Shown here: piece by piece, positions 2,429-34,946 of the stretch | Numbering within the stretch: position 1 is the stretch's first letter | Layout: each line of letters begins with the position of its first letter | DNA from: Escherichia phage vB_EcoP-ZQ2 | Reading direction: 5' to 3' (one strand) | Length of the DNA: 64,000 bases | Sequence record: NC_070874.1 | Notes under the pieces: model-generated | What the model was told of the DNA's origin: nothing | Seen by the model: only the letters and a program-made list of their open reading frames with translations | The model's database searches: none | Translations under genes and position numbers: made by a program

Positions 2429-2434
2429 GGAACC

Positions 2435-6440: not shown

Positions 6441-6461
6441 CGGAGGGGTTTCCTAGAAAAA
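6441..6461 (+). terminator. hairpin AACCCCTC-TTCG-GAGGGGTT between the two tail fiber genes (weak U-tract; terminator/attenuator or stabilising hairpin)
   Basis: perfect 8-bp stem with UUCG loop, read directly. Confidence 0.4.
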
Positions 6462-6474
6462 CAAAGAGGTTGTT

Positions 6475-8826
6475 ATGAACGAAATGTTCTCACAAGGTGG
6501 TAAAGGCTCCACTGGTATACTTACCAATAAGCAAGCCATTGCCCGTAAGTTTGGTGTTAAGCAGAATGAAGTAGTCTACTTTGCTGTAGGTGTAGACTTA
6601 GGTGGTTACAAAGTAATCTATGATAAGACTACCCAGCGTGCTTACTCATTGCCCGTACTTCCTTCAGGAACCACTGCTGTAAGTCTTAGCAACCAGGCAG
6701 TCCTGGTTCATTCAGCAGGTACAGTTGATTTAGGGGAACTGGCTGCTACATGCAGGGAGTTCGTGAACTTGTCTGACACGTTTGCTACTGGTTTGGTGGT
6801 AAATACTAGAAATGAATTACTATTTCATAATGGTATAGGTTATTCATATTTAGGTTCTCTACCTGTAACTATTACCGCAGGAACTAACCCTGTTGGCAAT
6901 GCAGACTGGAAGCCACAAACTGATCCTAATTTGAGAGAAGATTTATCTTCACCTGACCTAAATAAGGGAGCTTCTCTTGTTACTTTCCACTACTTAGGCG
7001 ATACGGTGGAAAGCACATTAGGTAACATTCAATCAGTACCTTTTGAGCATTTCGGCGGCGGAACCTCAAAAACTGGGGAAGAAAACACCGCTGCTTTGAA
7101 AGCGGCTATCTCTTCACAGTTTAAGCACATTTGGTTTAATAACGGTCCCTATACTTTCTCTGGGGATACTAATTTTACTGGAATCAATGGTAAAATTTTT
7201 GAGTCTAATACAAACGCTGCTTTTGTTTTCTCAGGTTTATTTTTTAACTTCAAATCTCCAGTGGACACCGAGTTCAGGGGGATCACGTTCAGTGCTCCTC
7301 CTACCAATACGGTGTTAAACTCCGTGACTCTTAGTAACTTCACTAATATTAAATTTACTAAGTGTAAGTTTCTTGGTTTTGGGGGAGACACTACAAATAC
7401 CGCAGGTAGTGCAGCACTCATACTTTATGCTGGTGATTCCGAGACGGCCCAGTATGCTGCTGGTAGTTCTACTGGTGCTGTTCTTGATGGGTGCTATTTT
7501 GACGGCCTTCGCGACCGTTTGTGTAACTTCGCGGTTAGGGTCTACACAGAATTTACTGTGCCGACTGCATCTATTGCAACTAATTCCAATAATAAAATCA
7601 TTAACTGTGATTTTGTCGGGCATAACTGGAACGCAGTTGAAATAGCCGGGCCTAGTACCCACAGCAACATTGTTAGTAACTGTTCAGCTACTAACCCAGG
7701 ACTGTGCCCATTTGACCTGGATAAAGGGACGCACGATAACATCGTAGAAAATATTACGATACGTAATTTGAAAGGAGACCTTGGCGTAAGTGGGTTCACC
7801 CGCGCGTCGGCTGTCAACATTCAGGGTGCCACTGCTGACACCTACTTTGCATACAATAACACCGTTAGAAATGTAACATGTGTCACAACTAAGGATAATA
7901 TCGACGCGTATAACGCCACCGGTTTTGGTTCCGGGTTCGCTGCTGTTAGTCTGGCATACTGCTACAACAACTTTGTAGATAATGTCACTATGACATGTAA
8001 CGGTGGTGTTCCGACCAAACCATCAAATGGCACAATGGCATTCTGTCATCTCACGTTTGAATCTATATCCGGGTGTACCGTTAATCGGGTGTCTACGGTT
8101 AACGCGTCTCATGGCATATTAATGACTTCATTCAAAAGTCAATCTATGTCGGCACTTAACGAGCCAAATCATTTTTCCACGTTCCGTAACTCTGGGGCCA
8201 ACCTAGAAGGTGAAATATTTTACGGGTATGCTACCGCAGCGGGTAGTCCATTGAAGATTATCCTCAATGACATAGACCTAACTACATCTGGTGCTCAAAG
8301 TAACCTTACGTACAACGGACACAAATATGCAATTGTGTACCGCACAGCTGGAAGCTCTGTTAACTATTTAAGGATTGAGGAAAGCCGCATCGGATTAGCT
8401 ACTGATTCTAATCTCTGGTTTGCTATGTGCACAGGGCCGCAAATTGGTTTGCGAGAGGTGCAAATCCACGATGGCAACGGTACAGCGAATGTTAATAGTC
8501 GTTTTATGGAATCCAATGGTTTGTCATTAATAACAAATATTGCTATCGATAACGTATATGGGGATCTAGAGAGAAAACCTATCCAGATACAGACGGCGTT
8601 AGCCGGGCTGACGGGTGGTACGTTTAAACTTGTTGGTGGGATTTCGGATAGTGGGTTACCACAATCTAGACCTGTTACGTTATTCGCCAATTCAGCAACC
8701 ACATTCCCATCAGCTGCTCAGTTTGATACGAATATAATCTTACGTCGTACATCGGCTACTACGGGCCAAGCGTGGGGATGGATTAGCACAGGAACAGCGT
8801 GGGCAGCGTTAGGCTCACTGACGTAG
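6475..8826 (+). CDS. tailspike / receptor-binding protein, probable right-handed beta-helix
   Basis: 783 aa; repetitive N/T/G/V-rich beta-solenoid-like sequence (NIVSNC, NIVENITIRN); position after first fiber gene. Confidence 0.5.
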   Translation: MNEMFSQGGKGSTGILTNKQAIARKFGVKQNEVVYFAVGVDLGGYKVIYDKTTQRAYSLPVLPSGTTAVSLSNQAVLVHSAGTVDLGELAATCREFVNLSDTFATGLVVNTRNELLFHNGIGYSYLGSLPVTITAGTNPVGNADWKPQTDPNLREDLSSPDLNKGASLVTFHYLGDTVESTLGNIQSVPFEHFGGGTSKTGEENTAALKAAISSQFKHIWFNNGPYTFSGDTNFTGINGKIFESNTNAAFVFSGLFFNFKSPVDTEFRGITFSAPPTNTVLNSVTLSNFTNIKFTKCKFLGFGGDTTNTAGSAALILYAGDSETAQYAAGSSTGAVLDGCYFDGLRDRLCNFAVRVYTEFTVPTASIATNSNNKIINCDFVGHNWNAVEIAGPSTHSNIVSNCSATNPGLCPFDLDKGTHDNIVENITIRNLKGDLGVSGFTRASAVNIQGATADTYFAYNNTVRNVTCVTTKDNIDAYNATGFGSGFAAVSLAYCYNNFVDNVTMTCNGGVPTKPSNGTMAFCHLTFESISGCTVNRVSTVNASHGILMTSFKSQSMSALNEPNHFSTFRNSGANLEGEIFYGYATAAGSPLKIILNDIDLTTSGAQSNLTYNGHKYAIVYRTAGSSVNYLRIEESRIGLATDSNLWFAMCTGPQIGLREVQIHDGNGTANVNSRFMESNGLSLITNIAIDNVYGDLERKPIQIQTALAGLTGGTFKLVGGISDSGLPQSRPVTLFANSATTFPSAAQFDTNIILRRTSATTGQAWGWISTGTAWAALGSLT

Positions 8827-17468: not shown

Positions 17469-20123
17469 ATGGGTTTATTCAGTGGGAAGACTAAAGTATA
17501 CGTAGCATCCTCTGTCTATAACATGGCAGGGGATATACATAAACGTCCTAACTATATGAAGACTGTAGTCATTGGCAATATTATTTCCAATACAGGATTC
17601 ACTATGGCAGACACTATCTCTGATAGTTATCTGAATGGGCCTGGTATTCGTATGCGATTGTTCTCCAGCTGGAGCAAGAACCACTATGATTCAGAAGTTG
17701 GTATGGCAGGCTCTTCATTAGGTGTACTGGCTAAGATTGACCCTACTGTTATAGAAGGTCAAATTACACCCCCTGCTGGAGAGTCTGTTTATGTTCAGGC
17801 AGCAGAGATTGGTTTTGCTGACTTTGAGCAATGGTGTGACCAGTATCTTTATGAGAATGCTCCAAGTCGAATCATGGAACGATTCGACATAGACATTAAT
17901 GAAGATACTAATGAAATTACGATGACCTCTTTAGATGGAGGTTCCACTATTACATTCACACCTACTAACTTTGAACCAGGTGCTTTATATCTCTATGCTG
18001 ATTACTCTTTCTATAAGTCTCCCTCTACCAATCCACCGGTAGTAGGACCAACTACTGTCTATGATAGTGAGGGTGACTTACCCTCAACTTTGTTATGGAC
18101 TACTGTCTCAAGTGATACGACAGCTAATACAGCCAATCTTACTAAGACTATACATACTCATTCCGTCTACTCTGATGGTAGACCAGATGAAGACAGTACT
18201 GTCACCGAACCAAGTGTAGATAACTGGAACTCTTACGTTAAGGTTTACCGTAGAGGGTTTACAGAGAAACCTAATGATGTAACTGTAGTTGTATCTGACA
18301 GAGTAATGACACATAAAAAGTTTGGTGAGATACAATCCAGTACTTCTGTAACTACCAATGTAGTTGATATAGGTGGAGGAGTTACTCGTACTGATACAAT
18401 TACTACAACCACAGAGACACTGGTTCGTAAGTACTCATCCCAGACTACTCGCACTGATACTGAGATGACTGCTGTTGGTACACCTAAGCTGCTTATCTAT
18501 AAGCAGAACTCTGGTAACGTTGCACTGGATTCACTGTTTAATACTGAGGCTACTGATAACCGATTCTATCCATTCATTCCAATCAGGAATGATAAGCAAT
18601 GGGTAGAGAACGACCCAATCTACCCACACTGTAAGAAAGCTCTTTATAAAGCTACTGGTGGTAAGCTCAATAATGTAATGACGGAGCTTAAGAAGAATAA
18701 AGACATAGGTGATATTCAGTACATTTATGGCACATTCGGTGTATCTCTTAATTCTCCTGAAGATACTGCTAAGGAATACATTTACCGTTTCTTTCAGATG
18801 GCTACTGAAGCATTTCCACCTGACCCAACCTACCCGACTTTGGAAGCAGTAATTGCAGGTTATCAGGCAGCTAATGATGCAGTTGATGCATACGTAGAAT
18901 GGTGGAACAGGACTGAAGGGCATACTATTGGAACTCCTCCACCACTGCCAGAATACCCTGTAATACCTAAACGAGAGTTTAGAGTGCATAGTAATAAGCA
19001 TTATAAATATGACATGACCATTGGTTGGAACTATGTGTCTGAAACTACACATTCAGGGCAAGCATGGGCTGGGGCTAAGCAGGGACAACTACGAGCCAGG
19101 TATGCAGGTGATATTACACTTACCCGTAAGAACATAAGGACAGCTTCTAACTCCGGTTCTGCTAAGAAACTCGAGGTAACATATACATTCTATTCAATGC
19201 AGGAGTATGAGTTACTTTGGCAGGACGGTAATAACACTTACCGTAAACTCAGAGTACTGGGCCTAAATCACTATAACAGGGTGTATAAGAATAAGTCAGT
19301 GCACATTGATGTTGCTGGGGCAATGGGTGATGCAGAAGAGAGTGGGTTCATTATCCCACTACACACTAACATTTATCGTTCCATGTCACTGGTTCGAAGT
19401 ACTCAGCTATCCACTGCCTGTTCCTACTTAGTGATGAACTCATATAAGAAGGTTAAGAAGAAATGGTATCAGACTGGGGCTTTTAAGATTGTTGTTGTAG
19501 TGGTCGCTGTGGTTATCTCTGTATTTACAGCTGGTGCAGGTGGTGCAGGTATACTTGGTGCATATGGTGCAGTTGGTGCATCTCTGGGTTTTGTTGGATT
19601 AGCTGCTGTGATAGTTGGTGCTGTAGCAAATGCTATTGCTGGAATGATTCTGGTATCCATTATCACTAAAGTATCCACTTCACTGTTCGGGGACAAGCTG
19701 GGCTTTATCATTGCTGCTATTGCTTCAATGGTAGCTATGAATGTTGGTACTGCTTTGTCTACTGGTACATCCCTATCTACCCTGGCAAGTGAAATGATGA
19801 ATGCCCAAAACATCATGCAGCTTACCAGTTCAGTAGGTAATGGTATTAGCCAGTATATTAATGCATCTACGGCTGCTACTATTCAGAAAGCAGAGAAAGT
19901 AATGCAGCAGTACAATACTGATATGATGGCAATCAATAAGCAGTATGAAGAGATGTTTGGTACTGCTGGGCAGGGTGTAATTGACCCAATGCAATTCGTG
20001 TCAATGGAGTCACTGGATTCATTCTTATCACGTACTCTTATGACTGGTTCAGATATAGCTGACCTGTCCTTAGATATGATAGGTAACTTCTCTGACATGA
20101 CTCTTAATACTGACTTAGTTTAA
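17469..20123 (+). CDS. internal virion / ejection protein with C-terminal multi-TM Gly/Ala-rich region
   Basis: 884 aa; C-terminal ...[45 protein letters not shown]... strongly hydrophobic. Confidence 0.5.
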
Positions 20124-20136
20124 CAGGAGAATCCCC

Positions 20137-20580
20137 ATGGATTTATCATTTTTAACAGGCAACCAAACTCCACAGCCAGCTGCTATGTCTTGGATGTCTA
20201 ATAACAATCAGAACTTTAATACCCCGGCTATGAACTATAACCCTGGTGCAGCTATTGGTATGGGTACGAATTTGGGTACATCTGCCCCTACTTCTTTCAT
20301 GTCTGGTTCAGCTAATCAGTTGGGTCTGAACGTACCAACCTTCCAATTAGGACTGGGTGCACTTGGTTCATTAGCTAATATCTATAGTGGTTTCCAGGCT
20401 AATAAGTTAGCCAAAGACCAGTTGAACTTTACTAAGAGTGTTACTAACACTAACCTGAATAATCAGATTAAGTCTTATAACACTGCACTAGAAGACCGTG
20501 CTCGTAGCCGTGCTGTTGCAGAAAACCGTGACCAGTCTTCAGCTGATGCTTACATTGCAGCTAACAAATTAACCCGTTAA
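20137..20580 (+). CDS. hypothetical virion protein
   Basis: 147-aa ORF. Confidence 0.45.
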   Translation: MDLSFLTGNQTPQPAAMSWMSNNNQNFNTPAMNYNPGAAIGMGTNLGTSAPTSFMSGSANQLGLNVPTFQLGLGALGSLANIYSGFQANKLAKDQLNFTKSVTNTNLNNQIKSYNTALEDRARSRAVAENRDQSSADAYIAANKLTR

Positions 20581-20592: not shown

Positions 20593-22539
20593 ATGGCTCA
20601 GATTACATGGCGTAATGTTGATGCACCTAACTTTTCTGGAGTTGGTGACAGCATTCGCACATTTGGAAGCATGATTGGTAACGCCACCTCCGGCTTAAGT
20701 GATGCACTGGGTAACTTCCAGAACGCTGCCAAGCAGGAGGCTGGCAATGCCGTCATGATGAATGCTCTGCGGTATCAAGACCCTACTGAGTATCGTAATG
20801 CTTTGGCATCCGGTGCATTGTTTCAGGGGGTTGACCCTACACTGGTAAACCAACATACCCTCCAGAATCTGGATGAGCGAGCAGGTACTCTTCTGACTCA
20901 ACAAGGTCAGCAAGGAACCAATGACTACAACGCTTATAACTTTGGTCGCTTAAAGGATGTTAACTCTGCATTAGATAACGCATCCCCAGCTATTCGTTTA
21001 CTGTCTGAGGCTTATCAGTCTGGTGACCAGAATCGTATTAATGCTGCATTGAGTCAGACTCGTGATGCACTGTCTGCACTTCCTGCTGACCAACAACTGG
21101 ATATGTTGGGTCGTCTACAAGGGCAAGGTGGTCAGGCTATTAACCAAGCACAGAACCGCTTTGATTTGGGCGTGGCTCAGCGTAATGATGCTGATTCACA
21201 AGCTGCATCCGGTATACTGACGGACATCTTCCGTAGTGCTTCCACTCCTATGGATGCACTTACACAGGCAGAGTCTGCTATGCAAAATGCTTCCCCTGGC
21301 GTACGTGCTGCAATTATGCGAGGTGTGAACGAGAGATTCCCAGGTACTTATGCCACGTCTGCTTCTGGCTCTGCTCCAGGAACTGCTGGTACTCGTTCTG
21401 GTTCTCCTTATGATGCAACCTATACCTTTGCTGCTACTGATAAGCCTATTACTGAAATGACACTGGGTGAGGTTACTAATCATCAACAGAGTATGATTAA
21501 TAATCCATCACAAGGTCATTCCCCTGTAGGTGCGTTCCAGATTAATAAAGCTACTCTGGAAGACTATGCACCTAAAGTACTTGGTTCAGACTGGCGTAAT
21601 CAGCAAATGACTCCGGAAGTACAGGACAAAATCGCTGAAGCAATCTTCAATGACCGTAAGGGTGGTAACCTTTCTAAGACTTGGGCTGCATTGCCTGACC
21701 TGGGTGTAGGTGGTTATAAGGATATGCCTTGGAGTGAGGCACGTCAGTTAATTGCACAAGCGGAGGTAGGAGCACCTCTTGATCAGCAACAGACCCAACA
21801 AGTAGTTTCAAAAATGGCAGGCAATACAGTTGCTGCACGTCAGTCTGAAGATAATACTGGAACCATTACTGCTAACTATGCTCGTGCATTACGCGACAAT
21901 TCTACTATTGGTGAAGTAGCAGATCGTCTTCTTAAGGATGCTTTTAAAGGTTCTGAGAAAGGATGGGTGATTGCTCGACTGAATGATGTTATGCAGGAAT
22001 CCGGGCAGTCTCCTGCCGTAGCTGCTGAGATTCTTAAGCAGTCTACTACTAACGTACCTGAAGGTATGATTAGTCGAGCACTTGATGCACTTAACCCATT
22101 CATCTCTAATGAGGGTGGTGGTGGTATTCGTATTGATGATACCGTTGCCAGAGAACTAGCACGTTCAGTTCGTCGTGGGGAAGGTATTGAAGCTACTGCT
22201 CGTGATAATGTTCTTACACAGGTACAAGGTAATATTGAAAATGCTCAGAATCAGGTAAACCAGGCAGAAGCCTTGCTTATTGATACTCGCCGTCGTGTGG
22301 CTGCTGGGCAAAGAGGACTTGCTGCTACTATTCCTGCCCGTGAGGCTGAGTTAGTAAGAGCACGGGCTGCACTGGATGCTGCTGTTAATACTGTGGTAGC
22401 TAACCAGGGAAACCTGGTTCCACAGAACTTCCGTTCTAATGCTTCAGTAGAACGTGAGCGTAGTCGTGAAGACGAAGAACGGGCTAAACGTTATCGAAAA
22501 TTAGCAGAGGGTTTACCTCCCTATATGCAACCTCGATAA
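20593..22539 (+). CDS. internal virion protein (N4 gp51-like position); possible lytic transglycosylase-like segment
   Basis: 648 aa; segment ...GHSPVGAFQINKATLEDY...AIFNDRKGG... weakly resembles a GH23 motif. Confidence 0.45.
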   Translation: MAQITWRNVDAPNFSGVGDSIRTFGSMIGNATSGLSDALGNFQNAAKQEAGNAVMMNALRYQDPTEYRNALASGALFQGVDPTLVNQHTLQNLDERAGTLLTQQGQQGTNDYNAYNFGRLKDVNSALDNASPAIRLLSEAYQSGDQNRINAALSQTRDALSALPADQQLDMLGRLQGQGGQAINQAQNRFDLGVAQRNDADSQAASGILTDIFRSASTPMDALTQAESAMQNASPGVRAAIMRGVNERFPGTYATSASGSAPGTAGTRSGSPYDATYTFAATDKPITEMTLGEVTNHQQSMINNPSQGHSPVGAFQINKATLEDYAPKVLGSDWRNQQMTPEVQDKIAEAIFNDRKGGNLSKTWAALPDLGVGGYKDMPWSEARQLIAQAEVGAPLDQQQTQQVVSKMAGNTVAARQSEDNTGTITANYARALRDNSTIGEVADRLLKDAFKGSEKGWVIARLNDVMQESGQSPAVAAEILKQSTTNVPEGMISRALDALNPFISNEGGGGIRIDDTVARELARSVRRGEGIEATARDNVLTQVQGNIENAQNQVNQAEALLIDTRRRVAAGQRGLAATIPAREAELVRARAALDAAVNTVVANQGNLVPQNFRSNASVERERSREDEERAKRYRKLAEGLPPYMQPR

Positions 22540-22556
22540 AATCTTACATACTAATA

Positions 22557-22580
22557 AAGCCCCATCCGGGGCTTTTCTCT
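22557..22580 (+). terminator. rho-independent terminator
   Basis: AAAGCCCC-ATCC-GGGGCTTT plus T-run. Confidence 0.6.
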
Positions 22581-22624: not shown

Positions 22625-25600
22625 TTGAACAGGAATCATGCTATGTCAACATTTGACCGTCTGGCAGGTTTCGCAGACAGCATCACTACTGCTAAGCAAG
22701 TCGATGTCTCTACTGCAACCTCTCGGAAACAAGCTGAACAAGGGCAAAACCCTTTCCAATTAACCCCACAGAACGCCTACCAGTTACAGGCAGGTCGTGC
22801 CGGTGATTTAGGTGCTGGTGCATTTGACCCAGGTTCTATTCAGGCAGATTTTACTAATGCCTCTCCTCTTGAAATCATAAACAAGTATGGCAATGAGCAA
22901 GGAATGGACATTCTTAATGCTCGTGTCAATGCAGCTAATGCTGTTCGTCGTGATTTAACTAAGAGTCGTACATATGGTGAAGCACTTGGTGATACCCTTT
23001 CTGGTGTTGGTCTTGGTGTTGCTAATACCCTTGGGGGCATTGCTGCTCTTGGCACAGGCTTGGTCAATGATAATGCCGGGGCATCCATTGCTTCCGGTCT
23101 TGACTGGTTGAACAAAGGTGTACACAACCTACAGTCTGATGCACTGAATGCTCGTCGTAATGTAGTACAGAACCAGAACGTAATATCTGCACAGGAAAAC
23201 GAAAAACAATATAAGCAGGATATTGATAAAGGAGAAAGTGAACTCGTTGCTTCCTTGTCTCGTATTGGTCGGGATGCTTACGATTCAGTTGCTAATACTT
23301 TGTCCAATGGCATGGCTGCTACAGATGGTATTGCTGAAGGTGTTGGTTCACTGTTTACTGGTGGTCCACTTATCCGTGGTGTATCTGCACTTGGTAAAGT
23401 AATGGTAGGTGGGGATAAAGCTGTTAAGGGTATTACCTTAGCTGCTGAATTAGGTTATCGTCCTGCACGTATTGCACAGACTGCTGGTCGTGTTGCTGCA
23501 CCTGCTATAGCAATTGGTGGTATGGAAGCTGGTGGTGCATACCAACAGACTGCTAATGAAATTATGGAAATGCCATTCAGTGAACTGGCTGCTAAATCTC
23601 CTGTATACCAACAACATATTAAAGATGGTTTAACTCCTGAAGAAGCACGACGTCAGACTGCATCTGAAACAGGTATCACTGCTGCTGGCTTAACCGCCCC
23701 AGTTGCTGCTCTCACTGGTCCACTGGTATCCAAGTTTGAACTTAACCCACTTAAGGTAGGTTCACTGGCTGGTGCTGGTTCTAACATGCTACGTGAGACT
23801 GTGGAGGAAGGTATTCAATCCGGTTTCGGTCAATTCGCACAGAACAAAGCAATTCAGGGTAACGTGGATGCTAATCGTGATTTGCTTAAAGGTGTAGGTG
23901 AACAAACTGGTCTAGGTGCATTGTATGGCTTTGGTTCTGCTGGGGTTGCTCAAGCTCCTGGTGTAACTGCTAAGACTGCCGTTGCTGCCGTTGGTCCTGC
24001 TGTACGTACTACCCTGGCTGGTGCTTCTCTGGCTGGTAAGGCACTAGCAAAAGTAGCTTCTCCTATTACTAACATTCTGGTTCAGCGTGGAGAAGAAGTT
24101 GCTAAGCGAAATGAGCAAGCATCTCCTGTATCAGACGTTACGGTTAATGCTGCTGCACAAGAAGCTACTGCTCAGGCAGAACAGGCTCAAGCAACTGTTC
24201 AGGAAGCAGTAGATGCAATGGACATTTCTCCAGAAGAGAAAGCTGCTGCTACTCAGTATGCTGCTGACTTAACTCAGGCAATGAAGTTTGACCCAGTAGA
24301 ACTGGAACAAGCTAGTCCAGCAATCCGTGAAGCTGTTTCTGGTTCCACTAACCGTGTTGAAGCTATTCAGAAGATGGCTGACCTGGTTAATACTGCCGAA
24401 GATCCTAACGTTCAAATGGAAGCTGCAATCCAGATGTATGACAACATCATGTCTATGGATAGCTTCATTAACCGTGACCCAGGTGCATTAGCTAATCTGG
24501 AACAGGGTTCTCCTGCTGCTAATATTGTTGACCAGTTCTCCGGTCTGATGGCTAACGTTCAGAATACACCGAAGGTACTTCGTGCATTCCGTGCCATCCA
24601 TTCCATGATTCAGGAACAGGCAGAAGCAGGTAAACTGAAGGCTACTGAAGAAGCTAACCAAGCCCAAGCAAACAACATTGCTATGGCTGCTGATATGTCT
24701 CCAGAAGTACTGGATGCTGATTCAGTGAACATGGTTCTGAAACACGCAAGTGAAGGTAAGATTACGCTGGGGAATCGTCAGCGTGCTGCCCTGCAATCTG
24801 CTGCTGCTCTATTGCAAGGAGCACGAGAATTTGATGCTAAAGCAGAAGAGCTAGGCTTACGTCCTCAAGACATTGTTAGTAAACAAATTAAAACCGACGA
24901 ATCTCGTTCTAATGAAGGCCAGTACTCTGCGTTGCAACATGCTAAACGCATTCGTTCTGCGTATAACTCTGGTAACTTCGATTTGGCTTCCGCTTATCTC
25001 GATGACTTTATGAAGTTCGCCCAGCACATGCAGAATAAGGTCGGAGCGTTGAATGAGCATTTGATTTCTGGGAATGCGGATAAGAATAAGTCTGTCCATT
25101 ATCAGGCTCTTACTCCCTCCCGTGAATGGGTACGTAGTCGTACTGGCCTCGGTGTTAATCCGTATGATACCAAGTCTGTTAAGTTTGCCCAGCAAGTAGG
25201 ACTGGAAGCCAAGACCGTAGCTGATATTGCTAACGCACTTGCTACGGCTTACCCGGAGCTTAATGTTTCTCATGTGAAAGTTACCTCATTGGATTCACGT
25301 CTGGACAAGCCTGCTGCCCAGGTAGTTAAAGAGTTCCGTCAGGGCAATCTTGACGCTGCTCAATCCCAACAGACTAATGAACCAGTGAATCAGGTTGATG
25401 AAACTCCTGTTACAAAACAGGAACCAGTTACCCCTACTGTACAGACTAAACCCTCTGTTAGTGAAGCTGTTAAAACAGAACCCACTATTAAAGAGTCTAA
25501 ACCACAGTCTGTAAAAGAACCTGAGAACCAGTCTGAAAAACAGGATACCGTTGATCAGTCTACTGAATCTGAAAGGGATGCTTATGTAAAAGAGAATACT

Positions 25601-28600
25601 ATTTCTCAAGATACTCTTAATAAGTATGGCGACCGTAAAGAGAGTCCATGGCTCTTTGCTGATGGTACTGTTGTTGGTTCTAATGGTGACCACATTAGCT
25701 TGTCCGATGTATTTGGACATGATGGTTATCGTGATATGTCACTAGATACAGGTGCTATTCGCTCTACCTTCTACAAAGGAAGCGAGCAACCATTTGTATC
25801 ATTGCAACTGTTTGATAATCAGAAACTGACTACTGAACAGTTCAATACTGTTCAATCATTCGTAGAAGCAAACAATGCACTGATTCAGATTGGTGTAGAT
25901 ACATCTGGGCTTAATACCAATAACGTTGAGAAAGAAGAAGTATCACTGGCTCAATTGAAAGCAGACTATACCGTTGGTGGTAAACCTCTATCTCAAATGG
26001 AAACAGTGTTCCCTGTCTATAACAATGAAAAGACACCGAACCAGTTCCTTAAAGCATTCTCTCTACCGGAAGAACCTAAGTCCCGTACCATTGGTTCTGA
26101 ATCTCCTTTGACTGATGTTAAGAAAGCACTGTCTTCTGTTGCTCGCTTTGAATCATTCACTCAAAAAGAAAATAACGCTCTCACAAGTGATGTGATTAAG
26201 CGTTACCAGGACTTATTTGATTTTGGTGAAACTCTGAAGACTACTCTGTCTGACCGTCTGGCTAAGTTCCTTGCTAACAAGAATGTTGGTAAACGTTTTG
26301 CAGAAGGTACTGAGGCTAACCGTTGGGTAGGTGGTAAATTACTTAACATCGTAGAGAAAGACGGAGATACCTTTAAGTTCAATGACCAGTTGTTAGAGAC
26401 TGCTGTACTTGCTGGTCTGCAATGGCGACTGACTGCTACACAGAATGCTGCCATTAAAGACATGCAGGATGTGGCTGCAATTACTGGTGTAAATGCTTCC
26501 TTGTTACCAGAAGGTATCCTTGCAGAGTTTGAGAATGCTCAAACCTTAGTAGAAGCTACTAACTCACTGGCTCAAAAGATTGAATCTTATTGGGGTCTTA
26601 ACCGCAATGCTGATGCACCTCTGGGCTATACCAAAGGTATCCCGATGGCAATGGCTACAGAGATTCTGTCTTCCCTTATTGAGATGGGTGAAGTTAAAGA
26701 GTCCATGTTGGATGTGTCTGAAATTGACTCAGAATCTAATAAGACCATTGGCCTGTATACCATTGAGAAGCTGGATGATACCGACGCCATTAACAAATTC
26801 CCTACTGCTATTGAGGAAGCTGTCCTCATAGAACCAGAAGAGAAACTGTACCTGGGTGATGACATTCCTTCCGTGGCTCCTACTCAGTTACGTAACCCAG
26901 CTGTTCGTAATACCCCAGAACAGAAAGCTGCTCTTAAAGCAGAACAGGCTACAGAGTTCTTTGTACATACCCCAATGGTTCAGTTCTATGAGGCGTTAGG
27001 TAAAGACCGTATCCTCGAACTGATGGGTGCTGGTACTCTGAATAAAGAATTACTTAACGAGAACCACGCTAAATCGCTGGAAGGTAAGAACCGTTCAGTA
27101 GAAGACTCTTATAACCAATTGTTCTCTGTTATTGAACAGGTAAGAGCACAGAGTGAAGACATCTCTTCTGTGCCTATTCATTATGCATACAATATGACCC
27201 GTGTCGGTCGTATGCAGATGTTAGGTAAATATACCCCCCAATCAGCTAAGCTGGTTCGTGAGGCTATCTTACCTACCAAAGCTACCCTGGATTTATCGAA
27301 CCAGAACAACGAGGACTTCTCGGGCTTCCAGCTTGGACTGGCTCAGGCATTGGGTATCAAAGTTCATAAAATGACTCGTGAAACTATGTCAGAAGAACTT
27401 ACCAAAGCTCTGGAAGGTAAGCTGAAACCTGCTGTAGATATGATGGTTGAGTTTGATAAGTCTGGATACTTACCTACTGATGCAGTGGATATCTTGAGAA
27501 CATCTCTGGGTAATGATAAGTCCTTTGTAGCTCTCATGGCTCTTATGGAGTATGCCCGTTACCTTAACAGTGATGACCGTGCCAACTTTAATACTCCTCT
27601 GTACGTTGAAGCTGATGGTGTAACCAACGGACCAATCAACGCAATGGTATTAATGACAGGTGGTAAGTTCACTCCAAACTGGATTAAGAATACTGCCAAA
27701 GGTGGTTTGTTCTTCGGTAAAGCCGGTAAGACTATGAATGAGCATCATACTCAGGATGATAGTGTTGACCTGTATGAAGCATCTACCAATAGTCTGCAAT
27801 TCCATCTGAATGAATTACGTAATACTTATAGTAAGAATATTCCTGTTATAAACCAGATGGACCATCTCCAGAAGTTAATGGACCTGTTCATCAAAGACTT
27901 CAATCTTAATGAAGATGGTACTCTGGACCTGAAACGTGGTATCGCTAAAAACCCACTAACCATTACTATCTATGGTTCTGGTGCTCGTGGTATTGCAGGC
28001 AAAATGGTAAGTGCAATTACTGATACCATCTACGAGCGTCTAAGCGACGTTCTGAAAGCCCGTGCTGCTGACCCTAACATTTCCCCAGCTATGGCGATGT
28101 TTGGTAAGGAGGCTGCGTCTGAAGCCGATGCTCAGGCTAAGCTGGATACTTTCCTTACTTCTATGAAAGAACTGACTGGCAAGATTCCAGCCAAACGTAA
28201 AGGTAGGTTATTTATTAAGGAAGTAGAAGGTGCTCTGACTGGCAAGTTAAATCCTCAGAAGTTTACCGTATCAGGGGATGCTCTGAAGAACTTACAAGAG
28301 AATATGCTGCACTTCTTTGTTGAGCCAATGAGACAAGGTATTCGGTTTACTGTTGGTGAAGGATTAATGCACTCTACTGAGAACTTGCAGAAGGCTACCC
28401 AGATTCAATCTCTGGTATTGCAGGATATGTTCCAGCAAGCAGTACAGGCTAAGCTGGCAGAAAAAGAAAAAGACCCAACATGGAAGAAAGGTGATTTCTT
28501 AACACAGAAAGAACTGAATGAAATTCAGAATAGCTTAGCTCCTCTGGCTCCAATGATTAAAACTGGTTCGCAGACTTTCTACATTGCTGGTAGTGAGAAT

Positions 28601-31600
28601 ACTGATGTTGCTAACCAAGTATTGGCTACTAACTTAGATGACCGTATGCGTGTACCAATGAGCATCTATGCTCCTTCGCAAGCAGGTGTTGCAGGTATTC
28701 CATTTATGACCATCGGTACTGGTGATGGCATGATGATGCAGACTCTTTCTACTATGAAAGGTGCTCCGAAGAATACCCTGAAAATCTTTGATGGTATGAA
28801 CATTGGTATTAATGACATTACTGATGCAAGCCGTAAAGCTAATGAGGCTGTATATACTTCCTGGCAGGGTAACCCTATCAAGAATGTATATGAGTCTTTC
28901 TCTAAGTTTGTTAAGAATGTTGATTTAAATAAGCTGTCCGATTCAGCAATAGATGCTATTGCAAAGTCTGCTTTAGACTTTGAGCAGCGTGCTCATATTG
29001 CCAGGGTAGATGGTGATAGAGATTATAAAATTTCTATGATTAGAGATTCTGGTATTGCATTAATTGAGCGTAACCTACGTAACATTGCTTTGGGTGTAGA
29101 TATTCGTCACAAGGTAATGGACCAGGTACAAGTCACTGTTGACCAGATGGCTGCTGTAGGTGCTCCTTATGTGAACAACGGTAAAATCTCTCTGGAAGGT
29201 CTGACTATAGACCAGCAAGTAGCCAAGCTGAACGAACTGTTTGATGCTGAATTAAACAAGCGTCGTGATGCAGTACGTGCTGCTAAAGCGGAACCAACGA
29301 AGGCAGAACCAGTGAAGGAAGTGCCGGTGAAAGTTGTACCAGCTATGGAGAAGGTAGGTCGTGTACTGAAGTCTGGTGTACGTCTGCTGTCTAATACTGC
29401 TATCACTAAGCTGGCTAAAGAAATGACCCCTGATCAGCAAGCAGTATTGAAAGAAATACAGAAATCCCTTGCTGCTAAAGACTATAAGGTTGTTTACGGT
29501 ACACCTTCTCAACTGGATGCTTATGCCATTGAGAAGAATATTACTCGCCCAGCACCGGAAGATATTGAAGCTGCTGAAGCTGGTAATGCATACGGCTGGA
29601 CTAACTTTGAAGATAAGACCATCTACTTAGTTACCCCTTCCTTAGAGACTCTGGTTCATGAATTAGTACATGCCTCTACTTTTGAATCTGTGCTGGCTCA
29701 CTACGAGGGTACTCCTAATGAAGCAGTCCAGAATATTGAAGACTTGATGAACCAGTTCCTTACTCTGGATGTTAAGGATGAATCTCCGGCAGTACGTGAA
29801 GCGTATGCCGATGCACTGAATACCATTAATGGTCACCTGTCTAATGGCTTCATTGAACCAGCAATGGCTAAAGCTGCTGCTCTGAATGAGTACATGGCTT
29901 GGGGTTTAACCAACCGTGAACTTATTAGTAAGCAGAAGAAAACCACTGCACTTAAAACTATGGTTCAGGCTGTATATGAAGCAATCAAACGTCTGGTATT
30001 TGGGCGTAAGAAAGCTCCAGCTAATGCAGATGATATGTTCTCAGGCTTACTGTTTAACTCTGCTGTAGTAATGCGTGGGCAGGCTCCTACTGCTGCTGTA
30101 GCTAAAGACACTACTCTGTTCCATAACAAAGCATACGGTAACAATACTCGTCTGGAAGAGTTAGGTAAGACCTTCGATAAACTAATTACTGACTACATTG
30201 GTTCAGAACCAGTACAGCAAGTAATTCGTAAAGGTAAGTTCTCTGATGCAGTAGTGAATGCAACTAAAGTAACTCGTGATGTTCAGGCTCATGGCTTCAC
30301 CATGAATATGCAGGAACAGCGTCTATTTACTAACATTGTTGCTGCACTTGCTACTGAGGCTGCTATTAACCCAGCAGCCATGGCTCGTGCACAGGAATAC
30401 TACACGCATGTTACTAAGAACTTGACCGTTGAAGCGTTCATGGCTGACCCAGATAGTACTAACCCTGCTGACCGTTACTATGCACAACAGAAGTTCGACA
30501 CCATCATGGGTGCTAACAACATTGAGTTTGATGCACAAGGTCGTTCTTCCTTACTGCCTACCTTTGTTGGTCTGGCAATGGTAAGTGAAGAGGTACGTAA
30601 GGTACTGGCTGATATTCCTGTTATGAAAGCAGATAAGAAATCAGGTAATACTGTTGACGCAATGCTGACTAACATCGGTACTGCTGCAATGGTTAGTCTG
30701 AATGCTCGTGTAGCAGGTGATACTAAAGCCACTAACGTGCGGGAAGGTATGGATGCACTGGCTCAGACAATTATGGAGACTAGCCTTAATGCACAATCTT
30801 TCTATGATTCCGTTGCTACCCCTACTGGTAATGCTATCGACCGTGCTAACCAATATCTGGTGGATTCTATTGATGTACTGTCTACTCGTACTTTGGAAGG
30901 TGCTCGTGAAGTTGCAGCTAATACCAAGAACCCACTAGTTAAAGGTGCTGCTCATGCTGCACAATTGGTAGCTGCTATTGCTACAGAGAAAAATGGTGCA
31001 ATTGTAGCTGAGGGTGTTATGGCTGCAATGAACCAGGGTAAAGTATGGCAACCGTTCCATGACCTGGTTAATGACATAATCGGTCGTACTAAGAGCAATG
31101 CTTCTGTATACGATTTGATTAAAGCAGTACGTGCACAGGTGCAAGCTGACCGTCAACAGTTCCGTGAGCATTTGCCTACCACTATCGCATCTAAGTTCAG
31201 CCGTAAGCTGACTAATGATGAGTGGAAAGCAATGCATACCGGTATGGGTAAAACTGACTTAGCTGTTCTTCGTGACACTATGTCTCTGGCTGAAATCCGT
31301 GACCTGTTGACTGACCAGAAGATTGTTGACCGTGAGGTTAATAAACTGGAAGCAGATTTGCAGAAGCAAGCCGGACGTAACTGGCCTCTGATTAGTCGTA
31401 AGTCTAAGCAACTGGCTCAGTACATGATTAATGGTACAGTCGGTAATAACCTGCTGCGTAATGCTACTGCAATTTCTCGTTTACTGGGTGAACGTAAGAC
31501 TACACGTTCTGTTGTAGATGTAGCACAACTGGATAAATTGATTACCCTGTATGCACTGGAAGCAATGAATAAGACTGACCGTGAGATGTTATCTTCACTG

Positions 31601-33460
31601 GCTCAGACAGAAATTGAAGGCATGGACTTTGCTATTTCTTACCTGGTTGGTCAGCGTAAAGATGAAATGGCTAAAGCTAAATCTGATAGCCGTGCAACCT
31701 TGAACCAGTACAAAGGGTATATTCCCGGTGAGACTAAACAGGGTGTTAATCTGATTGTTGCTGAAGATAATCAGTTTGCTGATTTGATTGAGAAATCCTA
31801 TGTACGTCTGGGTACTTATCAGGGTAGCTCTGCTAACCGTGGTCCAGCACGTAGCTACTACTTTGCACCAGTACAGGCACAGGCTCCATTCTCACAGGGT
31901 ATTCTACAGAACGTTCGTAATACTGCTGGTGGTGTAGACCTTGGTACAGGCTTTACGATGGGGACCATGGTAGCTGGTCGTATCACTGACAAACCTTCCG
32001 TAGACCGTATCACTAAAGCACTGGCTCGTGGTGAACGTGGTAATGAACCACTGCTGCCTGTATATGATACCAATGGTAATGTGGTTGCTTATGAGCAATC
32101 CATTGACCCAAGCATGCTGAAGCACATCGAGGGTGAGAACCATCTTGCTCGTGCAATCGGTGTATGGCGAGGTCGTCAGGTAGAAGAGGCTAAGGCTCAG
32201 CGTTTCAACGATATGCTGATTGAGAACCTGCATAGCATGTATGAGAACGACATTAAAATGTCTGCTTCTAATAAGTCCCAGTACGTTAACCTTCTTGGTT
32301 CTAAACTGGACCCAGTAACTGCTGATGCACTTAAGCTGATGAACAGTGAAACTCGTCAGAAAGCAGAAAGTCTGTTTGGCCCGGGTGAGCTATGGGTACG
32401 TCGTGACATGCTGAATGATGCACTAGGTTATCGTGCAGCTTCTGTTGGTGATGCCTGGTCTGGTAATTCTCGTTGGTCCCCAGAAACACTGGATACCTTC
32501 AAGAAAGCTATGCTGGGTGTCTTCGGTAACCGAGCCTATAAATATGTAATGGGTGGTGAGAACCTGGTTCAAAACTTAGTTAAAGAAGCTAAGACTCTAA
32601 TTGTAGTTAAGTCAGTAGTTGTACCTGCTGTTAACTTCCTGGCTAACCTTTACCAGATGGTTGCTCGTGGTGTACCTGTTAAGAACATTGCTAAGAGCAT
32701 TCCACAGAAGACTGCTGAGATTAATCAGTACCTGAAATCTCGCCTGCGTCAGGTAGATGCAGAAGCAGAATTACGTGCAGCTACTAACCCGAACCAGATT
32801 CGTAAACTTAAGGCTGAGATTCAATCAATCACTGATAGCCATAAACGTTTGAGTATCTGGCCTCTGTTAGAAGCTGGTGAGTTCTCTTCAATTGCAGATG
32901 CTGGTATTGGACGTGATGACATCCTGATTACTGAAGGTAAGATTCACGAATACATGGATAAGCTGGCTGATAAGCTGCCTAAGTCTGTACGTAACGCAGG
33001 TCGTTATGCACTTATCACTAAGGATACTGCTCTGTTCCAGGGTATCCAGAAGACGGTTGAGTACTCTGACTTTATCGCTAAAGCAATCATCTATGATGAA
33101 CTGACTCAGCGTAAAGGTAAGACTCGCGAAGAAGCACTGGGACGTGTAACAGAAGAGTTCATTAACTATGACCGTCTGCCAGGTCGCTTCCGTGGGTATA
33201 TGGAAAGTGTTGGTCTTATGTGGTTCTATAACTTTAAGATTCGTTCTGCAAAAGTTGCAGTATCCATGATTCGTAACAACCCAGTACATGCTGCTATGGC
33301 TATGTTGGCCCCAACCCCTACCATGTTTGGTAATGTTGGTCTGCCTATTAAGGACAACATCTTTAGTATTGCTGCACAGGGCAACCTCGGTTACTCCTTC
33401 GGATTCGGTATGGGCTTACGTGCCCATACCCTGAACCCGTGGCTCAACCTTACTAACTAA
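22625..33460 (+). CDS. virion-encapsidated giant RNA polymerase (N4 vRNAP-like)
   Basis: single 3611-aa ORF; central region with T7-like RNAP-type motifs (IYGSGARGI, FDGMNIG); position next to internal virion protein genes. Confidence 0.8.
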   Translation: MNRNHAMSTFDRLAGFADSITTAKQVDVSTATSRKQAEQGQNPFQLTPQNAYQLQAGRAGDLGAGAFDPGSIQADFTNASPLEIINKYGNEQGMDILNARVNAANAVRRDLTKSRTYGEALGDTLSGVGLGVANTLGGIAALGTGLVNDNAGASIASGLDWLNKGVHNLQSDALNARRNVVQNQNVISAQENEKQYKQDIDKGESELVASLSRIGRDAYDSVANTLSNGMAATDGIAEGVGSLFTGGPLIRGVSALGKVMVGGDKAVKGITLAAELGYRPARIAQTAGRVAAPAIAIGGMEAGGAYQQTANEIMEMPFSELAAKSPVYQQHIKDGLTPEEARRQTASETGITAAGLTAPVAALTGPLVSKFELNPLKVGSLAGAGSNMLRETVEEGIQSGFGQFAQNKAIQGNVDANRDLLKGVGEQTGLGALYGFGSAGVAQAPGVTAKTAVAAVGPAVRTTLAGASLAGKALAKVASPITNILVQRGEEVAKRNEQASPVSDVTVNAAAQEATAQAEQAQATVQEAVDAMDISPEEKAAATQYAADLTQAMKFDPVELEQASPAIREAVSGSTNRVEAIQKMADLVNTAEDPNVQMEAAIQMYDNIMSMDSFINRDPGALANLEQGSPAANIVDQFSGLMANVQNTPKVLRAFRAIHSMIQEQAEAGKLKATEEANQAQANNIAMAADMSPEVLDADSVNMVLKHASEGKITLGNRQRAALQSAAALLQGAREFDAKAEELGLRPQDIVSKQIKTDESRSNEGQYSALQHAKRIRSAYNSGNFDLASAYLDDFMKFAQHMQNKVGALNEHLISGNADKNKSVHYQALTPSREWVRSRTGLGVNPYDTKSVKFAQQVGLEAKTVADIANALATAYPELNVSHVKVTSLDSRLDKPAAQVVKEFRQGNLDAAQSQQTNEPVNQVDETPVTKQEPVTPTVQTKPSVSEAVKTEPTIKESKPQSVKEPENQSEKQDTVDQSTESERDAYVKENTISQDTLNKYGDRKESPWLFADGTVVGSNGDHISLSDVFGHDGYRDMSLDTGAIRSTFYKGSEQPFVSLQLFDNQKLTTEQFNTVQSFVEANNALIQIGVDTSGLNTNNVEKEEVSLAQLKADYTVGGKPLSQMETVFPVYNNEKTPNQFLKAFSLPEEPKSRTIGSESPLTDVKKALSSVARFESFTQKENNALTSDVIKRYQDLFDFGETLKTTLSDRLAKFLANKNVGKRFAEGTEANRWVGGKLLNIVEKDGDTFKFNDQLLETAVLAGLQWRLTATQNAAIKDMQDVAAITGVNASLLPEGILAEFENAQTLVEATNSLAQKIESYWGLNRNADAPLGYTKGIPMAMATEILSSLIEMGEVKESMLDVSEIDSESNKTIGLYTIEKLDDTDAINKFPTAIEEAVLIEPEEKLYLGDDIPSVAPTQLRNPAVRNTPEQKAALKAEQATEFFVHTPMVQFYEALGKDRILELMGAGTLNKELLNENHAKSLEGKNRSVEDSYNQLFSVIEQVRAQSEDISSVPIHYAYNMTRVGRMQMLGKYTPQSAKLVREAILPTKATLDLSNQNNEDFSGFQLGLAQALGIKVHKMTRETMSEELTKALEGKLKPAVDMMVEFDKSGYLPTDAVDILRTSLGNDKSFVALMALMEYARYLNSDDRANFNTPLYVEADGVTNGPINAMVLMTGGKFTPNWIKNTAKGGLFFGKAGKTMNEHHTQDDSVDLYEASTNSLQFHLNELRNTYSKNIPVINQMDHLQKLMDLFIKDFNLNEDGTLDLKRGIAKNPLTITIYGSGARGIAGKMVSAITDTIYERLSDVLKARAADPNISPAMAMFGKEAASEADAQAKLDTFLTSMKELTGKIPAKRKGRLFIKEVEGALTGKLNPQKFTVSGDALKNLQENMLHFFVEPMRQGIRFTVGEGLMHSTENLQKATQIQSLVLQDMFQQAVQAKLAEKEKDPTWKKGDFLTQKELNEIQNSLAPLAPMIKTGSQTFYIAGSENTDVANQVLATNLDDRMRVPMSIYAPSQAGVAGIPFMTIGTGDGMMMQTLSTMKGAPKNTLKIFDGMNIGINDITDASRKANEAVYTSWQGNPIKNVYESFSKFVKNVDLNKLSDSAIDAIAKSALDFEQRAHIARVDGDRDYKISMIRDSGIALIERNLRNIALGVDIRHKVMDQVQVTVDQMAAVGAPYVNNGKISLEGLTIDQQVAKLNELFDAELNKRRDAVRAAKAEPTKAEPVKEVPVKVVPAMEKVGRVLKSGVRLLSNTAITKLAKEMTPDQQAVLKEIQKSLAAKDYKVVYGTPSQLDAYAIEKNITRPAPEDIEAAEAGNAYGWTNFEDKTIYLVTPSLETLVHELVHASTFESVLAHYEGTPNEAVQNIEDLMNQFLTLDVKDESPAVREAYADALNTINGHLSNGFIEPAMAKAAALNEYMAWGLTNRELISKQKKTTALKTMVQAVYEAIKRLVFGRKKAPANADDMFSGLLFNSAVVMRGQAPTAAVAKDTTLFHNKAYGNNTRLEELGKTFDKLITDYIGSEPVQQVIRKGKFSDAVVNATKVTRDVQAHGFTMNMQEQRLFTNIVAALATEAAINPAAMARAQEYYTHVTKNLTVEAFMADPDSTNPADRYYAQQKFDTIMGANNIEFDAQGRSSLLPTFVGLAMVSEEVRKVLADIPVMKADKKSGNTVDAMLTNIGTAAMVSLNARVAGDTKATNVREGMDALAQTIMETSLNAQSFYDSVATPTGNAIDRANQYLVDSIDVLSTRTLEGAREVAANTKNPLVKGAAHAAQLVAAIATEKNGAIVAEGVMAAMNQGKVWQPFHDLVNDIIGRTKSNASVYDLIKAVRAQVQADRQQFREHLPTTIASKFSRKLTNDEWKAMHTGMGKTDLAVLRDTMSLAEIRDLLTDQKIVDREVNKLEADLQKQAGRNWPLISRKSKQLAQYMINGTVGNNLLRNATAISRLLGERKTTRSVVDVAQLDKLITLYALEAMNKTDREMLSSLAQTEIEGMDFAISYLVGQRKDEMAKAKSDSRATLNQYKGYIPGETKQGVNLIVAEDNQFADLIEKSYVRLGTYQGSSANRGPARSYYFAPVQAQAPFSQGILQNVRNTAGGVDLGTGFTMGTMVAGRITDKPSVDRITKALARGERGNEPLLPVYDTNGNVVAYEQSIDPSMLKHIEGENHLARAIGVWRGRQVEEAKAQRFNDMLIENLHSMYENDIKMSASNKSQYVNLLGSKLDPVTADALKLMNSETRQKAESLFGPGELWVRRDMLNDALGYRAASVGDAWSGNSRWSPETLDTFKKAMLGVFGNRAYKYVMGGENLVQNLVKEAKTLIVVKSVVVPAVNFLANLYQMVARGVPVKNIAKSIPQKTAEINQYLKSRLRQVDAEAELRAATNPNQIRKLKAEIQSITDSHKRLSIWPLLEAGEFSSIADAGIGRDDILITEGKIHEYMDKLADKLPKSVRNAGRYALITKDTALFQGIQKTVEYSDFIAKAIIYDELTQRKGKTREEALGRVTEEFINYDRLPGRFRGYMESVGLMWFYNFKIRSAKVAVSMIRNNPVHAAMAMLAPTPTMFGNVGLPIKDNIFSIAAQGNLGYSFGFGMGLRAHTLNPWLNLTN

Positions 33461-33461
33461 A

Positions 33462-33495
33462 TAAAAAAGCCCCTCTAATGAGGGGCTTCTATTTT
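33462..33495. terminator. bidirectional rho-independent terminator at the convergence of late (+) and early/middle (-) transcription
   Basis: AAGCCCCTC-TAAT-GAGGGGCTT 9-bp stem flanked by A-run upstream and T-run downstream. Confidence 0.7.
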
Positions 33496-33856
33496 ACTTC
33501 TTAACTACAAGAGCTTTTCGGTCAGTTTTGATTACATAATCAATCTTGTTGGCATTAAAGTGAATATCTACAAAATTGGCGTCTACCTTTTGGTAAGTAC
33601 CGTTGTTTCTGCGAATACCTAACTTCTTACAGTGAACCATTGCGATTCCTGTATCCGGTATAGCAATCCAGTTGTTATCATCAATTTGTACATCACAACC
33701 AAAGGTTAAACGATGTCTTGCTTTACGATGGACATGTAAACCACCAATACGCTTTGGTATAATCTGACCCTTCCTAAAGAGTTCCAATGTTTGAACTTGA
33801 TGCGCTGCAAATGATTTAGTCATGCGTTCTCCACATCTTGGGCTTACGCCCTTCAC
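33494..33856 (-). CDS. hypothetical protein, possible degenerate HNH-like nuclease
   Basis: 120 aa; His/Asn spacing GGLHVHRKARHRL...DDNNW...VHCKK loosely HNH-like; overlaps upstream ORF by 41 nt. Confidence 0.3.
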   Translation of the reverse strand: MKGVSPRCGERMTKSFAAHQVQTLELFRKGQIIPKRIGGLHVHRKARHRLTFGCDVQIDDNNWIAIPDTGIAMVHCKKLGIRRNNGTYQKVDANFVDIHFNANKIDYVIKTDRKALVVKK

Positions 33857-34645: not shown

Positions 34646-34872
34646 TAGTAGCTTTAACGCAGCTAACGAGGCTAGGCCAGTTAACTATTACCACCGGTGC
34701 TTGTACCAGCAAACAGGATTGATAGTCCGATAATAGATAACTGTATTTGAGCATTATAGTCTACTCATACTCACACCGATAGGTATGTTTTCAATAGCTA
34801 GAGTGCCGGACTGTCTCACCGGCATTGTCTTTAGAGTGCAATGCAATCAGGACTATGTTCTCTATTAATGAG

Positions 34873-34946
34873 TACCCACTACTGGATTTGAACCAGTGAC
34901 TTTCCAATTATTAGTTGGTTGCTTTCCCCGTCTAAGCTAAGTGGGC
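34873..34946 (-). tRNA. tRNA, 74 nt, anticodon read as AAU (Ile-type, atypical A34)
   Basis: hand-folded cloverleaf: acceptor GCCCACT/AGTGGGT (one G-U), D-stem GCTT/AAGC, anticodon stem CCAA/TTGG with loop CTAATAA, T-stem ACTGG/CCAGT with loop TTCAAAT, discriminator A. Confidence 0.6.

Follow-up and report, generated by a model that had tools for sequence, protein, structure and literature searches.

A predicted gp50-like virion RNA polymerase gene with an additional linker domain in the G7C-like phage vB_EcoP-ZQ2

Analysis of 64,000 nucleotides of Escherichia phage vB_EcoP-ZQ2 (sequence record NC_070874.1; this whole stretch is referred to as the window) identified a giant open reading frame (ORF) on the plus strand that almost certainly encodes the single-subunit RNA polymerase (vRNAP, the homolog of N4 gp50) that a G7C-like Gamaleyavirus (Schitoviridae) encapsidates in its virions and injects. 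The gene marks the window as belonging to an N4-type phage of the G7C-like kind, and synteny can therefore guide the annotation of everything else in it. The vRNAP gene itself brings no new biology, since few phage enzymes have been studied as thoroughly as the N4 vRNAP and near-identical Gamaleyavirus genomes are already public by the dozen. Two smaller points may be of use to specialists. The G7C-type vRNAP has a predicted folded domain at the place where the N4 linker is disordered, which bears on the "beads-on-a-string" view of vRNAP translocation and on the idea of the vRNAP as a carrier of polyvalent effectors. In addition, the gene for the RNAPII large subunit is split by a group I intron that contains an HNH endonuclease gene.

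Identity and extent of the giant ORF

A first-pass annotation made from the DNA letters had proposed an N4-like virion RNA polymerase and named profile or BLAST comparison with N4 gp50 as the check, and that comparison bore the proposal out from end to end. In a phmmer search of the PDB sequences, the full-length N4 vRNAP chains (11gp, 9pnq, 9pnr and others) matched with E=0 and 5133 bits, the alignment falling into two stretches (query aa 1-989 and 1131-3604), and the mini-vRNAP crystal constructs 2PO4, 3C2P and 3Q0A matched with E=0 over query aa 1131-2214. Four vRNAP families were matched in Pfam (N4_RNAP_helical, vRNAP_dom_2, vRNAP_dom and vRNAP_plug), with E-values of 1e-100 to 1e-25 and scores that far exceed the cut-offs, and PHROG 2206, "virion RNA polymerase", spans aa 25-3604. 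A three-way alignment gave identities of 68% to N4 gp50 and 97% to St11Ph5 gp50. Compared with N4 the N-terminal domain (NTD) is the most diverged part, including one 150-aa block at 42% identity, and the polymerase domain is more similar, as is the C-terminal domain (CTD) (Table 1).

The central domain is homologous to mini-vRNAP and contains T7-like polymerase motifs, as the first-pass annotation had read from the sequence. Motifs T/DxxGR (MTRVGRMQ), A (LYVEADGVTNG), B (RGIAKNPLTITIYGSG) and C (LKIFDGMNIG) are the same as in N4. Using the mini-vRNAP numbering, in which mini-vRNAP residue i corresponds to gp50 residue i + 997 (an offset verified on the N4 sequence), the conserved catalytic-motif residues are R424 (T/DxxGR), D559 (A), R666, K670 and Y678 (B) and D951 (C). 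Also conserved are R119 and W129, which recognize the promoter -11G, and the local sequence around all of these residues is identical to that of N4. Both the NTD and the CTD are homologous to those of gp50, and the HEXXH motif described for CTD subdomain C1 (PMC13434306, PMC5512222) is kept as HELVH (nt 29657), which in N4 is at aa 2228. As such, the protein is collinear with N4 gp50 (2PO4, 3C2P, 3Q0A; full-length structures 9PNQ, 9PNR and related), with the same NTD, linker, T7-like polymerase and helical CTD with HEXXH. It is 105 aa longer than N4 gp50, almost entirely because of a domain of ~130 aa inserted in linker 1.

Records for homologous genes carry the label "DNA polymerase" in HK2, U1G, PD205 and PBM-3, and "gram positive anchor domain protein" in ECBP1, names that would suit a polyvalent or DNA polymerase-like protein with a polymerase-like fold that does not function as a vRNAP. 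These labels are annotation errors, and we consider such a reading exceedingly improbable given the collinearity with the biochemically and structurally characterized N4 vRNAP, the 72% identity in the polymerase domain with all catalytic residues kept, and the separate location of the actual DNA polymerase gene of the phage at 43612-46191 (-).

The presence of the vRNAP in vB_EcoP-ZQ2 virions is predicted by analogy with its homologs in N4 and in Moo19. The Moo19 homolog, whose NTD is 77% identical to that of the window protein, was found by mass spectrometry to be packaged in the virion (PMC11654681).

In the ORF listing the frame extends over 22625..33460 (+) and has 3611 aa when counted from a TTG codon. 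Its translation has no internal stops across 10.8 kb, and the estimated chance of an open frame of this length is ~(61/64)^3611, or ~e^-173. The first-pass annotation was thus right that there is a single 10.8-kb ORF, but its length of 3611 aa is likely six codons too great: translation probably begins at the ATG at 22643, for a product of 3605 aa. We prefer this ATG to the TTG at 22625 because an AGGA lies a few bases 5' of it and because the N-terminus that it encodes, MSTFDRLAGF, aligns with those of N4 gp50 (MSVFDRLAGF) and St11Ph5 gp50 at the equivalent Met. A length of 3605 aa falls within the range of N4-like vRNAPs (giant ORFs of ~3,400-3,700 aa). Minus-strand ORFs of 100-141 aa inside the gene were taken to be shadow ORFs.

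Table 1. Position and supporting evidence of the vRNAP gene, its domains and other features of the window
Feature	Position (nt)	Strand	Evidence and remarks
gp53 homolog	17469..20123	+	56% identity to N4 gp53
gp52 homolog	20137..20580	+	60% identity to N4 gp52
gp51 homolog	20593..22539	+	45% identity to N4 gp51, E 4e-176
Terminator-like GC-rich hairpin, T-rich tail to ~22581	22556..22575	+	dG -13.1 kcal/mol, z -4.2
vRNAP gene, N4 gp50 homolog (probable start)	22643..33460	+	ORF, phmmer, Pfam, PHROG, alignment
N-terminal domain, aa 1-905	22643..25357	+	61% identical to N4 NTD; phmmer, alignment; PMC13492108, PMC13434306
Linker 1, low-complexity, E/Q/T/V/S/P/K-rich, aa ~906-984	25358..25594	+	Matches N4 ~907-1006; PMC13434306
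Predicted globular insert of ~130 aa in linker 1, aa ~985-1118	25595..25996	+	Not in N4; motifs SPWLxADG, GDH, TGAIR
Polymerase (mini-vRNAP) domain, aa ~1130-2215	26030..29287	+	72% identical to N4
C-terminal domain, aa ~2216-3605	29288..33457	+	70% identical to N4; HELVH at aa 2339
Bidirectional terminator-like hairpin	33465..33490	both	dG -17.8 and -20.4 kcal/mol
HNH_3 + AP2 endonuclease ORF	62593-63237	-	Inside gp16 intron

Genome architecture and the early region

Directly upstream of the vRNAP gene are homologs of N4 gp51 and gp52, preceded by a homolog of gp53, a protein that is associated with the virion and is hydrophobic in its C-terminal region (PMC11654681). The first-pass description of the giant ORF as a neighbor of internal virion protein genes is correct, because N4 gp51 and gp52 have been shown experimentally to be ejection proteins, gp51 giving rise to a complex of the outer membrane and gp52 to a periplasmic tunnel (PMC13434306). 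The gene order of the window is that of St11Ph5 and N4, namely gp57, gp56 (major capsid), gp55, gp54, gp53, gp52, gp51 and gp50, followed by the convergent gp47/49 back to gp43. As in N4, the vRNAP gene comes after gp52 and gp51, where it closes the plus-strand late/structural block, and is convergent with the replication genes. On the minus strand to its right are genes for a RuvC-like resolvase, SSB, a Sak4-like protein, primase, DNA polymerase and helicase, in a block that also holds rIIB/rIIA, an HNH endonuclease and an ATPase. A tRNA-Ile gene (anticodon aat) is located at 34872-34946 (-).

Terminator-like hairpins flank the vRNAP gene on both sides. One is situated between gp51 and the vRNAP gene, at a site homologous to that of a terminator annotated in PhAPEC7, and the other separates the vRNAP stop codon from the convergent minus-strand gene. 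A scan for sigma-70 promoters upstream of the vRNAP gene found none, which is unsurprising if the late promoters resemble those of N4, as these are weak and activator-dependent.

In nucleotide comparisons that cover 95-100% of its length, the vRNAP gene shares 88-94% identity with its 25 best matches, all of them Gamaleyavirus (pSb-1, St11Ph5, EC1-UPM, Bp4, ECBP1 and others), and G7C carries the same gene. Taken as a whole, the window shows 93-94% identity to known Gamaleyavirus genomes, and four segments of it were each 92-94% identical, over 77-100% of their length, to St11Ph5, pSb-1, EC1-UPM, ECBP1, nithesis and HK2. Nucleotide identity and synteny thus place the phage in Gamaleyavirus (G7C-like; Enquatrovirinae), and the plus-strand late genes ending in the vRNAP gene opposite a convergent replication block are the Schitoviridae-type architecture that the first-pass annotation had recognized. 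The degree of identity suggests that vB_EcoP-ZQ2 is a distinct strain or species among the Gamaleyavirus phages, not a distinct type.

The first-pass annotation had also placed the early region, with its hairpin promoters, past the right edge of the window, and comparison with related genomes agrees with this. In the left 9 kb of the N4 genome, three perfect hairpins (5-7-bp stem, 3-nt loop) that precede a TTWTGG were found at ~90, 557 and 4546, the second of which (~557) we take to be P2 of the crystal construct. All three fall within the left ~8 kb, where the N4 early promoters P1-P3 have been placed (PMC13492108). Their consensus, GCTYCGCNNCTTWTGG, was used to scan for promoters with at most two mismatches. 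There were no matches in the 64-kb window, an absence that is weak taken alone because only 0.78 matches were expected by chance, and a looser hairpin scan of the window also gave none. In St11Ph5, four matches were found (0.15 expected), all on the coding strand and in the leftmost 6 kb. The record of phage nithesis has the same orientation as the window, with the vRNAP gene at 22782-33536, and its three matches, at ~64553, ~69379 and ~70192, are all beyond 64500. Since the right edge of the window lies inside the homolog of gp16 (the RNAPII large subunit), gp15 would lie beyond 64000, as would the promoters and the small ORFs of the early region, and from synteny with these 92-94% identical genomes we infer that vB_EcoP-ZQ2 has early hairpin promoters there.

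The route by which such a polymerase acts has been shown for N4 and is transferred here to vB_EcoP-ZQ2 by homology. A few vRNAP copies would enter the capsid through a requirement for the CTD, as in N4, where ~4 copies are packaged per virion in a CTD-dependent manner and where the CTD is both needed for encapsidation and autoinhibitory for the polymerase (PMC13434306, PMC13492108). Upon adsorption and receptor binding, gp51 and gp52 would be ejected to form the outer-membrane complex and periplasmic tunnel of a trans-envelope channel. The vRNAP would thread both the ~30-35 Å tail and the tunnel as subdomains joined by flexible links, like beads on a string, and the NTD would remain at the inner membrane, with the polymerase domain and CTD refolding in the cytoplasm. 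There the CTD would pack on the polymerase domain and keep it autoinhibited, through the plug and the motif B loop, until a hairpin promoter is bound. The T7-like polymerase domain would recognize left-end hairpin promoters extruded from supercoiled DNA, with the -11G of the hairpin loop read by R119 and W129. Transcription of the early genes, including those for RNAPII, would then help to pull in the genome, as early-gene transcription does in N4 (PMC13434306, PMC13492108).

The insertion in linker 1

In N4 gp50, residues ~907-1006 form a low-complexity linker, owing to which cryo-EM did not resolve the NTD (PMC13434306). Exactly within this linker 1, the window protein is longer than N4 by about 118 residues net, and a seven-way alignment resolved the excess as a clean insertion of ~130 aa (aa ~985-1118) that is shared by the window protein and St11Ph5 and is absent from N4, PhAPEC7, PBM-3, Moo19 and one Klebsiella relative. 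The vRNAPs of PhAPEC7-type Gamaleyaviruses, Moo19 (Moovirus) and Klebsiella Kaypoctavirus are homologous and collinear with the window protein but lack the domain, and those of PhAPEC7, PBM-3 and Moo19 are 3450-3480 aa long. The case of PhAPEC7 indicates that a vRNAP lacking the domain is viable. Conversely, gp50 of St11Ph5, pSb-1, EC1-UPM, G7C, Bp4 and ECBP1 has the same linker insertion and the same neighbors as the window protein, from which it differs only in small indels, such as an 11-column gap in St11Ph5 at window aa 2218-2227. The phage records in which tblastn found the domain number only 27; every one is of the G7C type, with an identity of 91% or more, and they are mostly named isolates, including G7C, Bp4 and St11Ph5. 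In the DNA the right boundary of the insertion is sharp, near nt 25997, and the flanks of the linker are near-identical to PhAPEC7.

An insertion of this size between the NTD and the polymerase domain, together with the annotation of the pSb-1 homolog as three ORFs, raises the question of whether the vRNAP is decaying or inactive, through a defective genome or disruption of the linker, such that the phage relies on another polymerase. We give this reading hardly any credence, since the frame is open throughout with all functional residues intact. Moreover, the insertion is in frame, is located where N4 has a flexible low-complexity linker (PMC13434306), is conserved across the 27 records, and is predicted by alignment-based AlphaFold to fold confidently (pLDDT 93.6; the single-sequence prediction was poor, at pLDDT 55). 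An intein or intron was also considered as the nature of the insertion and was rejected because it is in frame and is an ordinary internal domain in other proteins. Its composition (GC 0.39, GC3 0.27) resembles that of the adjacent linker and so gives no sign of recent foreign origin.

Neither the insertion nor its 19-sequence alignment had a significant match in Pfam, PHROGs, NCBIfam or the PDB sequences, the Pfam search covering those LPD families of PMC5512222 that have been deposited in Pfam. A word-indexed protein search with the insertion returned no matches, and an exhaustive HMMER search was therefore required, in which 22 proteins, mostly very large, matched at E<1e-3. A related-locus search with the single domain sequence recovered G7C alone, and no DNA match for the insertion, or for the gene of the polyvalent-protein homolog P0003, was found in E. 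coli genomes. Among the proteins bearing the domain are ones of 1.2-3.7 kaa that contain SLT, SNF2-type helicase, methyltransferase, ddrB-ParB, InPase and LPD22/38/39 domains. Among these homologs are P0003 (3675 aa; SLT, ResIII/Helicase_C, methyltransferase and LPD39), P0004 (methyltransferase, ddrB-ParB and LPD39), P0005 and P0016 (LPD38), P0006 (LPD22), P0009 (SLT) and P0013 (InPase). The P0003 gene is the last of a late/tail cluster in a temperate phage, and downstream of it come genes for lysis and for an integrase. Residues S-P..L, G, D-H, R and Q are invariant in the domain.

Domain combinations of this kind characterize the phage polyvalent proteins described by Iyer, Burroughs, Anand, de Souza and Aravind in 2017, for which the N4 vRNAP is the founding example, as an RNAP joined to a zincin-like HEXXH domain, to which ART, lysozyme or PBECR domains may be added (PMC5512222). 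In view of its recurrence with LPD, SLT, helicase and methyltransferase modules and in a phage late-cluster context, we regard the linker domain, on the sequence evidence, as an extra folded "bead" drawn from the pool of domains that make up polyvalent proteins. One further homolog, P0014, is a distant N4-like vRNAP that is 23-25% identical outside the domain and in which the domain is collinear, following a low-complexity stretch and preceding the helical subdomain by ~700 aa. The linker domain is 63-67% identical to the copies in the non-polymerase polyvalent proteins and ~30% identical to that of the distant vRNAP, and because the former are so much closer, module exchange rather than simple vertical descent is suggested for its spread.

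During infection this G7C-type domain would be one more bead on the string, presumably reaching the cytoplasm with the polymerase. We only tentatively entertain the idea that it is an uncharacterized effector module, which seems to us rather unlikely. Were it one, the injected polymerase would bring it to the cytoplasm of the host, and its role there could be in early host takeover, counter-defence, or tethering or regulation of the polymerase, and the domain would represent a new, structurally unassigned family and a case of modular exchange between vRNAPs and injected polyvalent proteins.

A group I intron in the gp16 homolog

The gp16 homolog at the right edge of the window is split: by tblastn, the minus-strand segment 64000..63533 encodes residues 188-343 and the minus-strand segment 62561..62379 encodes residues 345-405. 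Rfam identified the complete core of a group I intron at 63298-63541 (-), which scored 91.8 bits where the gathering score is 50 (E 3e-22), and the intron also contains an endonuclease ORF (Table 1). The intron extends from 63531 to 62564 (-), a length of 968 nt, and its last base is G. Exon 1 ends in ...CATGATT (63532, a U) and exon 2 begins with GTTTTAGATGTCAT (62563), and the ligated junction is therefore expected to read ...CATGATT followed directly by GTTTTAGATG.... Splicing as predicted restores V-H-D-C-F-R-C-H, the same as in intact homologs. N4-like phages already have known group I introns, such as that of the Vibrio phage pVa5 td gene (PMC5746245), and as such it is the insertion site in gp16 that is new and not the kind of element. 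Shigella phage Moonfish was the only record found to share the intron element, at 94% identity, and in that record the pieces are annotated as separate genes.

Group I intron in the gp16 homolog and endonuclease genes

The gp16 homolog, encoding the large subunit of RNAPII, was found to be interrupted by a group I intron, the core of which (63298-63541, minus strand) matched Rfam RF00028 (91.8 bits, E 3e-22) and which carries a homing-endonuclease ORF. Judging from the translated exons, splicing at the deduced junction would regain an intact RNAPII large-subunit sequence. This intron was shared with Shigella phage Moonfish only, and the record of that phage has the intron-bearing region annotated as split genes.

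The window contains two HNH genes, counting as the second a free-standing gene, flanked by those for a dCTP deaminase and an ATPase, whose product is a homolog of St11Ph5 gp25.

Features identified in the window
Feature	Position	Strand	Remarks
Tail and tailspike genes	3136-6363, 6475-8826	+
Inserted linker domain, ~130 aa	25595-25996	+	vRNAP aa ~985-1118
tRNA-Ile, anticodon aat	34872-34946	-	in a stretch of small ORFs immediately to the right of vRNAP
Free-standing HNH endonuclease gene, 402 aa	57946-59154	-	PHROG 1314
Hoc-like Ig-domain decoration protein, 314 aa	61228-62172	-	gp17 homolog
gp16 homolog exons	~62379-62563, 63532 to beyond 64000	-
Group I intron, 968 nt	62564-63531	-	within gp16/RNAPII large-subunit homolog
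HNH_3+AP2 homing-endonuclease ORF	62593-63237	-	inside the intron

An inserted domain in the virion RNA polymerase

The linker between the N-terminal domain and the polymerase of the virion RNA polymerase (vRNAP) is of low complexity apart from an inserted domain, for which a confident fold was predicted (pLDDT 93.6). Among the vRNAPs compared, this domain was limited to the G7C type, those of N4, PhAPEC7, Moo19 and the Klebsiella relatives being without it. Its homologs were phage polyvalent proteins and one distant vRNAP, and it had no assignment in Pfam, PHROG, NCBIfam or PDB. Among the GenBank relatives HK2, U1G, PD205, PBM-3, ST4, ECBP1 and pSb-1, several public records carry a wrong label for the homologous vRNAP: "gram positive anchor domain protein", "DNA polymerase" or, with the gene divided in three, "hypothetical proteins".

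Variation among relatives

While the best relatives matched the vRNAP gene over 100% of its length, they matched the structural block (1-22624, plus strand) over only 77-82%, at ~94% identity. Mosaicism is typical for host-range modules, and our guess for a mosaic segment is the tail and tailspike genes (~3136-8826). The length of the Hoc-like protein varies among close relatives, since its St11Ph5 counterpart has 277 aa; the 945-nt gp17-type gene of nithesis is alike in size to that of the window. Where the window has tRNA-Ile, tRNA-Ala is annotated in the equivalent region of St11Ph5.
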